Shown one piece after another: positions 7,841-8,320 of a DNA stretch of 64,000 nt. The stretch lies in assembly GCA_964342815.1 (NCBI GenBank), contig CAYFHS010000001.1, positions 279,107 to 343,106 on the forward strand, given 5' to 3'. The translations under genes and the position numbers were made by a program. This stretch comes from an uncultured archaeon. Its GTDB lineage: Archaea; Thermoplasmatota; Penumbrarchaeia; JASLWR01. The notes below the pieces were generated by a model. The model was given only the letters and a program-made list of their open reading frames with translations. It was not told the DNA's origin and searched no databases. How positions within the stretch are numbered: position 1 is the stretch's first letter; every line of letters starts with the position of its first letter.

Positions 7841-8320
7841 GGTGACATAGAAACGCAGTTTCTATTAACCCCGACATTGCATCGCGGATGCAATTAGGGC
7901 TAAGTGAAAGGTTGTTTCACTGTCGCCTAATAAAATCTCTGATTTTATGTTGGGAAACAGCAGAATGCCTGTTTTGCTCCGGTGACTTTTCAAGTCTCCT
8001 GCACCCTCGGGAGTTTACTCTCTGCGGGTACACCCGTTTTCAAACGGGGGATGAATGGACCTGTAGCTAGACTTGGCGAAGGTACAGCAAAGCCTGAAAG
8101 GGTTTGCGTAATGAAATGCGCATCTTCGGGTGTTTCCGAGGATACCCATTTCATTCCTGTCAATCAAAGATACTCGACGAAATAAGTTTCGTCTGTACCC
8201 TCGGGATGTATCCCTGCGGGTTGTTCTGCATCCTCGGCTAGTGAGCCTGCGGATGCAGTTGTATCTCGATGCAACGGAGTATAACGGGTAAGATCAGAAG
8301 AATCTTTGATTCTTCAGGGT
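7841..8320 (+). ncRNA. Candidate large structured non-coding RNA (unassigned family)
   Basis: About 14 closely packed stems plus enclosing helices (7841-7847 with 7921-7927; 8110-8118 with 8147-8155), a cUUCGg loop at 8124-8129 and a GAAA loop at 8096-8099; G-U wobbles fall on the + strand; no credible ORF. Confidence 0.55.

Follow-up and report, generated by a model that had tools for sequence, protein, structure and literature searches.

A recurring hairpin with a TC/TRC internal loop as the putative terminal module of a small, gene-less mobile repeat in marine Thermoplasmatota

The stretch of DNA analysed here (the window, 64,000 nt) is the terminal 64 kb of contig C1 in a 4.35-Mb, 116-contig, 89% complete assembly (G000) of an uncultured archaeon, and raises the question of why one hairpin should recur at three distant non-coding loci with different stems and an unchanged internal loop. 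The original prediction described the motif as CC-TC-(stem-loop)-TRC-GG, proposed that it is a protein-recognition module, either an RNA-binding site or a single-stranded DNA hairpin of the kind recognised by IS200/IS605 and RAYT transposases, and joined the three loci into one system. All five of its hairpins are present: 8003-8029 (+; ACCC TC GGGAG TTTA CTCTC TGC GGGT), 8197-8221 (+; ACCC TC GGGA TGTA TCCC TGC GGGT), 8226-8258 (CTGCATCC TC GGCT AGTG AGCC TGC GGATGCAG, with TC and TGC on the plus strand), 18279-18303 (+; CCC TC AGGAG CAAG CTCCT TAC GGG) and 63876-63900 (−), which is the 18279-18303 hairpin in reverse complement. The window holds three further copies: 8059-8083 (−), with one stem mismatch; 63941-63963 (+), with TA as its 5′ loop; and 18116-18147 (+), in which the 5′ TC is present and the 3′ TRC absent. 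The contrast between a fixed 2 × 3 loop and differing stems holds up as well, and extends to the closing pairs, which are invariably C:G on the outside and G:C, sometimes A:T, on the inside; around this constant core both stems, inner and outer, change in a compensatory manner.

With a strict descriptor of the motif (CCTC, ≥4-bp inner stem, 2-10-nt loop, TRCGG), 85 sites are found across the 4.35 Mb of the genome, compared with a mean of 8.3 (range 3-12) in ten dinucleotide-preserving shuffles of the whole genome. This roughly ten-fold excess rules out background frequency. Among the 1024 possible 2 × 3 loops (16 × 64 combinations; mean 6 sites), TC/TAC (59) ranks first and TC/TGC (26) second, and the exact TC/TRC bases are kept in 43 of 51 distinct model-aligned units of this genome and in 27 of 33 units of two sister genomes. 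Both checks proposed with the original prediction, the comparison with shuffles and the loop bases of additional copies, thus came out in its favour. Given the ten-fold excess and the top two ranks among 1024 loops, the motif is non-random; that it recurs by chance or composition, with no common origin, is recommended by nothing except its shortness and has a negligible probability, the more so as the 78-position model in which it is embedded reaches scores of 78 bits. This conservation supports the view that the TC/TRC hairpin behaves as a recognition-type module, and to that extent the first part of the original prediction stands.

Comparison of 86 curated copies together with their flanks indicates that the hairpin is not free-standing: it is, on the aligned sequences, the 3′-terminal (right-end-like) hairpin of a gene-less unit of ~58-67 nt, here called unit E. 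From 5′ to 3′ the unit consists of (TG)CCC, also seen as (K)CCC; a covarying 2-bp mini-stem, RY-(3-4 nt)-RY; TMC; a first hairpin (hairpin A); TGM; and the motif hairpin, itself composed of outer stem, TC, inner hairpin, TRC and outer stem. Hairpin A is variable, yet always starts with G and closes with C, and its flanks are a weaker version of the motif flanks (YC-G...C-TRM). The two hairpins fill most of the unit, which lacks terminal inverted repeats and at 58-67 nt is too short for a transposase gene.

To describe these units we used a seed alignment of 15 sequences with four helices (A1), which is the basis of a 78-position covariance model (R1). In this alignment 94.6% of cells are paired, and double-sided changes occur in 17 of 19 pairs, including the 2-bp mini-stem; there are 79 double changes and only two one-sided (G:U-type) changes in 280 cells, values matched by none of 500 shuffles and by no slid register. 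An independent alignment from the sister genomes (A4) gave 94.1% paired cells, changes in 17 of 19 pairs, 151 double changes and 7 one-sided cells of 577, and the architecture, loop and covariation of the unit there are as in this genome. Within the inner stems, G:T pairs account for 2 of 594, and the few non-Watson–Crick pairs are A·C pairs adjoining the loop, so that wobble pairs do not discriminate between the two strands that might fold. The inner hairpin was also considered as a separate mini-insert and rejected, as the ‘hairpin-less’ variants are copies in which TC has become GCA and the loop has closed into a perfect stem. Two units of relatives, L082:4809-4871 and L096:1258-1322, have this replacement of the 5′ TC and form the perfect stem CCGCAGGG/CCCTGCGG. 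In addition, the loop of the 8226-8258 hairpin is flipped in polarity relative to its own minus-strand unit, reading GCA/GA in unit orientation. The GCA-for-TC units and this flipped hairpin suggest that the two arms of the motif may occasionally be copied onto each other.

Each of the three loci resolves into units of this kind. The first is a cluster of four, starting with a complete unit at 7959-8036 (+; R1 52.1 bits, E 1.9e-13) that comprises the 5′ block TGCCTGTTTTGCTCC, hairpin A, the linker CCTGC and the motif hairpin 8003-8029. It is followed by a unit at 8052-8129 (−; 38.1 bits), whose motif hairpin at 8059-8083 reads ACCT TC GCCA AGTC TAGC TAC AGGT; a unit with an altered 5′ part at 8136-8228 (+; 35.0 bits; motif hairpin 8197-8221); and a unit at 8223-8297 (−; 33.7 bits) with the 5′ block ACCCGTTATACTCC, hairpin A and the terminal hairpin 8226-8258. 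At the second locus, a host unit (18053-18303, +) is split by two nested inserts into its 5′ block (18053-18068), hairpin A (18194-18212) and motif hairpin (18279-18303), and has uninterrupted paralogues at C13:108099-108176 and C19:6021-6098. The first insert (18069-18193, +), delimited by filled/empty comparison with contigs C13, C19, C20 and C66, has GATGC at either flank and contains a variant unit at 18072-18151 (+; 34.1 bits) with the terminal hairpin 18116-18147. The second lies within a degenerate unit at 18209-18285 (−; 25.3 bits); the insert proper, 18217-18278, interrupts the outer stem of the 18279-18303 hairpin on its 5′ side, and its empty form is found on C13 and C19. A contig joint that skips 18217-18278 is present and stems from the C13/C19 paralogues. 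The third locus is an inverted second copy of this composite (63857-64000, −), which makes up the 93% complementary inverted repeat I1 and is cut by the contig end, where the window also ends. It carries the motif hairpin 63876-63900 (−), a nested unit at 63894-63971 (+; R1 match) with the TA/TAC hairpin 63941-63963, and the 5′ part of the host unit at 63933-64000 (−; R1 match).

Other features lie close to these units. At window positions 17735-18009 a second dispersed repeat family is represented by 65-nt double-hairpin units in tandem, and at other loci (e.g. C2:218261 and C3:68531) units E are inserted in the GTAAAG...CTTTAC hairpin of that family. The region 8351-8653 (−) and 8933-9231 has a truncated member (100 aa) of a nine-copy dispersed family of ~165-aa basic proteins; in the window this gene adjoins a 23-bp tandem array, and matches to the 23-bp repeat lie near at least one paralogue (C1:221911-222532). 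This family has DNA-level relatives in two of the related genomes, G001 and G003, and none in G002. The genes at 18992-19615 (−; Cgi121/KEOPS-like), 61496-62200 (+; AbiEii-type nucleotidyltransferase toxin) and 62350-63687 (+; MatE transporter) are ordinary neighbours with no link to the repeat.

Across the whole genome, R1 returned 134 matches, at least 125 of them at E <1e-4, from the 150 of 1177 candidates that were scored. It matched more than 100 times in G001, which is congeneric with this genome, more than 100 times in G003, from another genus of the same family, and once each in G002, from the same family, and in G030; no match was found in 36 further genomes from the class and phylum. 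When one genome of each prokaryotic species was scanned for the pattern, multiple matches occurred only in Thermoplasmatota archaeon ETNP2_MAG_1 and uncultured archaeon SRP077602_co2_347, and the remaining matches were single, in unrelated bacteria, at about the expected chance level. The repeat is thus restricted to one lineage. Within this genome, 79 of the 86 curated copies (~92%) lie outside ORFs of at least 120 aa, which cover 87% of the sequence. Their orientation relative to neighbouring genes is random, they nest in one another in either orientation, and many are at contig ends, including the window's own.

Comparison with the sister genomes reveals that these units come and go. Specifically, G001:C71 carries a 67-nt minus-strand unit exactly between positions corresponding to window 7595 and 7596 (TTTTTTCT^TTGTGAGGG), with unambiguous borders and no duplication, and this genome represents the empty site. 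Reciprocally, a 64-nt unit on G000:C16 is missing from the corresponding site on G001:C12, again cleanly and with no target duplication. The flanks of these orthologous filled and empty sites are 81-85% identical, and their reciprocity indicates gain or loss of units in both lineages since the split. Some 20 paralogous filled/empty pairs gave inserts of 58-66 nt; many of these pairs have 2-5 nt of junction microhomology, which leaves some latitude in the exact ends and is compatible with a very short target duplication. Metagenome contigs from four marine runs, covering window 6000-20000, were fragmentary, with joints derived from paralogous copies and no usable polymorphism. As to the ends, a fixed 3′ terminus exactly 3 nt after TRC was tried and rejected: it fits the G001:C71 event, and the G000:C16 unit ends 5 nt after TRC. 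Within individual copies, the five bases preceding CCC resemble the five that follow TRC: 116 positions are identical, where permutations give 95.2 ± 4.9 (0/5000), and this correlation is confined to one register. The junction microhomology of the paralogous pairs is a further expression of this effect. The correlation could mean that units land beside sequence like their own end, or that a very short duplication is made.

The proposal that the three loci form one system is therefore to be abandoned: the repeat that this hairpin terminates has at least 125 units genome-wide, and the syntenic site in G001 has neither the 7959-8297 cluster nor the adjoining small gene and 23-bp array. The loci are landing places of the same selfish repeat rather than a dedicated system. 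For annotation, the hairpin-dense regions 7850-8320, 18050-18320 and 63860-64000 can be described as mosaics of one small mobile repeat, and a false lead, that of a three-locus RNA or protein system, is removed.

The same observations bear on whether the hairpin acts as RNA or as DNA; a look for RNA runs covering window 4000-12000 gave none. If it were a protein-binding RNA module, the units would be multicopy small structured RNAs or RNA-level regulators, in keeping with four strongly covarying helices and conserved unpaired bases, and with the frequent transcription of bacterial GTAG-type REPs (PMC3733652). Against this, G:U-type states make up ~1% of cells and double changes ~26%. Since G:U intermediates are common in RNA families, their near-absence here would suggest a constraint on DNA hairpins. 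Moreover, the copies have no orientation bias relative to genes, nest in either orientation and lie at contig breaks, and their presence differs at syntenic sites of sister species; Rfam had no match at gathering score over the whole window, and only noise at E up to 10 in 7400-9700. We consequently consider an RNA module improbable. Of the two alternatives in the original prediction, the single-stranded DNA hairpin of IS200/IS605-RAYT type fits far better than the RNA site, because the stems are almost purely Watson–Crick, the copies are intergenic and free in orientation, units nest in one another, and insertions are clean with no target duplication.

The original prediction also called for a co-occurring HUH/RAYT or TnpB/IscB gene, and here no clear partner emerged. 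The Y1/HUH family PF01797 had no match in this 89% complete assembly or in G002, TnpB had none in this assembly, and the reverse transcriptase family RVT_1 had none in this genome or in G001; Y2_Tnp is absent from this genome and present in G001. A tblastn search of this genome with the sister TnpA returned one 53-residue match (E 0.007), which on inspection is no transposase. A search for an autonomous element, with a gene between left and right ends of E, yielded only regex noise in this genome, and none of its multicopy protein families is a transposase: in the nine-member 165-aa family there is no nuclease motif, and nothing beyond a weak winged-helix (SarA/Rot-type) match below threshold. 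The only IS110 transposase (DEDD type; G000:C110:137-610) lies on a short, GC-rich contig that is probably foreign to the bin; the same contig has a chance match to the motif. Over this genome and G001, none of RVT_1, Y2_Tnp and IS110 tracks the repeat.

Y1 genes do occur in relatives, with two full copies and fragments in G001 and one copy in G003. The three sister Y1 proteins score above the cut-off of the NCBIfam IS200 model and below that of the RAYT model, and the closest solved structures to the sister TnpA are the Sulfolobus, ISDra2 and IS608 TnpA. Canonical IS200-type elements with a 163-aa TnpA are found at L070:1202-2133 (G003:C1) and L071:935-2520 (G001:C158). Their end hairpins read CCAGYGYC-TTTA-GGSRCTGG and their target is TTAC, the left flank ending in TTAC and the right end in ...GTTTAC. 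These hairpins are unlike those of E, and both gene and hairpins are absent from this genome. No unit E flanks the sister Y1 genes, save for one weak 19.9-bit match ~500 nt from the gene in L071. Co-occurrence of Y1 and E is therefore weak, given that Y1 genes are also present in 4 of 38 relatives without E, that the ends of the sister elements are unrelated, and that this genome has no Y1 gene.

This leads to a further alternative, that the units are fossils or are still being spread on folded DNA by a route other than Y1, such as a tyrosine recombinase (integron/attC-like) or an undescribed nuclease. A folded attC site has an outer stem, an unpaired spacer, an inner stem and a variable loop, which the outer stem, fixed unpaired bases, inner stem and variable loop of the motif resemble; the TC/TRC loop would then act as the unpaired central spacer. 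The absence of a Y1 gene or remnant from this genome, despite a unit gained after the split from G001, points in the same direction. However, an integron would have co-oriented cassettes beside an integrase, and units E are instead clustered, mutually nested and orientation-free, with no gene cassettes between them; the insert is only 64-67 nt, with no cargo, and no recombinase is linked to E. We regard this explanation as unlikely, if less so than an RNA module.

We favour, as the probable explanation, that the hairpin is the end of a gene-less mobile unit that most likely moves as single-stranded DNA by cut-and-rejoin chemistry like that of IS200/IS605 elements, PATEs and REPs. The small size, hairpins near the ends, lack of terminal inverted repeats and target duplication, and nesting of E match elements moved by Y1/HUH enzymes, and from this likeness we infer single-stranded transposition and a role for the loop. 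IS200/IS605 transposases bind subterminal hairpins, with a guide tetranucleotide at the hairpin foot placing the cut by base-pairing at the cut site, and REPs are treated likewise (PMC6006769). The closest described kind of element is the PATE of Haloquadratum walsbyi, a transposase-less relative of IS605-type elements (PMC3119063) that has near-terminal palindromes, no terminal inverted repeats or target duplication, a size too short for a transposase, and a role as target of nested insertions (PMC3119063). E is likewise archaeal and too small for a transposase gene, and shares with PATEs these palindromes, the lack of terminal inverted repeats and of target duplication, high copy number, nesting with other small repeats, and mobility in a genome with no evident intact IS200-type transposase. 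It differs in being much smaller (~65 nt), in its fixed 2 × 3 internal loop and conserved 15-nt 5′ block, and in having a marine member of the Thermoplasmatota, not a haloarchaeon, as host. PATEs are tied to IS605-type elements, whereas the palindromes of E are unrelated to any such element found in its lineage.

Next in likeness come the REP/REPIN-RAYT systems and the ends of IS200/IS605 elements. With REPs, BIMEs and REPINs mobilised by RAYT (TnpA-REP; PMC3733652, PMC3116915, PMC2817692, PMC3479197), E has in common short imperfect extragenic palindromes in more than 100 copies, clustered mosaics and restriction to a lineage; its abundance is of REP type, and 92% of its 85 to ~110 motif hairpins fall outside ORFs. 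For comparison with GTAG-tagged REPs, ~70% of copies of E have GTA-G on the complementary strand at the 5′ foot of the inner hairpin, and ~30% have GCA-G; being enclosed by the outer stem, this GTA-G is not a free terminal tag. The REP doublet is inverted, whereas in E a 5′ block is followed by two hairpins in direct order. The search for a RAYT gene that would make E a REPtron was negative, and in Archaea only typical IS200 transposases are known, with no RAYT classes (PMC6006769). With IS200/IS605 ends (IS608, ISDra2; PMC6006769; PDB 2A6M, 2VJV, 2XM3), E shares a hairpin near each end, the lack of target duplication, and a hairpin foot with a few conserved bases, which in E would position the cut; a further likeness is the correlation of the sequence just outside its left end with that of its right end. 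Unlike those elements, E has no transposase gene and no fixed tetranucleotide, such as TTAC, as its preferred target, and its cut-site strand would fold back on the foot and so make the 2 × 3 loop; in comparison with IS608, that putative strand is only 3 nt from the hairpin foot.

Under single-strand transposition, the TC/TRC loop with its CC/GG pairs would be the putative end-recognition site. The enzyme would grip the inner hairpin, and a short duplex made up of the conserved unpaired TC and TRC and the C:G pairs beside them would place the cut a few bases after TRC, much like the guide tetranucleotide at the foot of IS608 and REP hairpins. Put differently, CC-TC...TRC-GG may be a hairpin-foot structure in which guide and cut-site strands are folded together across a linker of only 3 nt, an arrangement that on paper would look like an outer stem and a 2 × 3 loop. 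The weaker but similar flanks of hairpin A and the CCC/TRC flank correlation would both fit such a foot structure. A bolder version, to which we give little credence for now, holds that the outer stem and TC/TRC loop are a built-in, copy-specific guide-target duplex, such that units land where the flank matches their own end, and that they are moved by an archaeal single-strand DNA enzyme that is not recognisable as Y1/HUH. If true, this copy-specific reading would give REP-like elements a new partner enzyme, and this in a domain with no known RAYT.

Overall, REP/PATE-like elements are little described in marine Thermoplasmatota, and one of them now has a model of 78 positions, defined ends and genuine empty sites. 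New here are the TC/TRC hairpin as the terminal module of a ~65-nt unit, the end-flank correlation, the Y1 survey of relatives and two orthologous sites that are cleanly empty in one genome. In practical terms, the repeats break short-read assemblies of these genomes. A unit gained in this genome after the split from its sister, with no transposase in view, offers a defined substrate for finding the enzyme that moves it.
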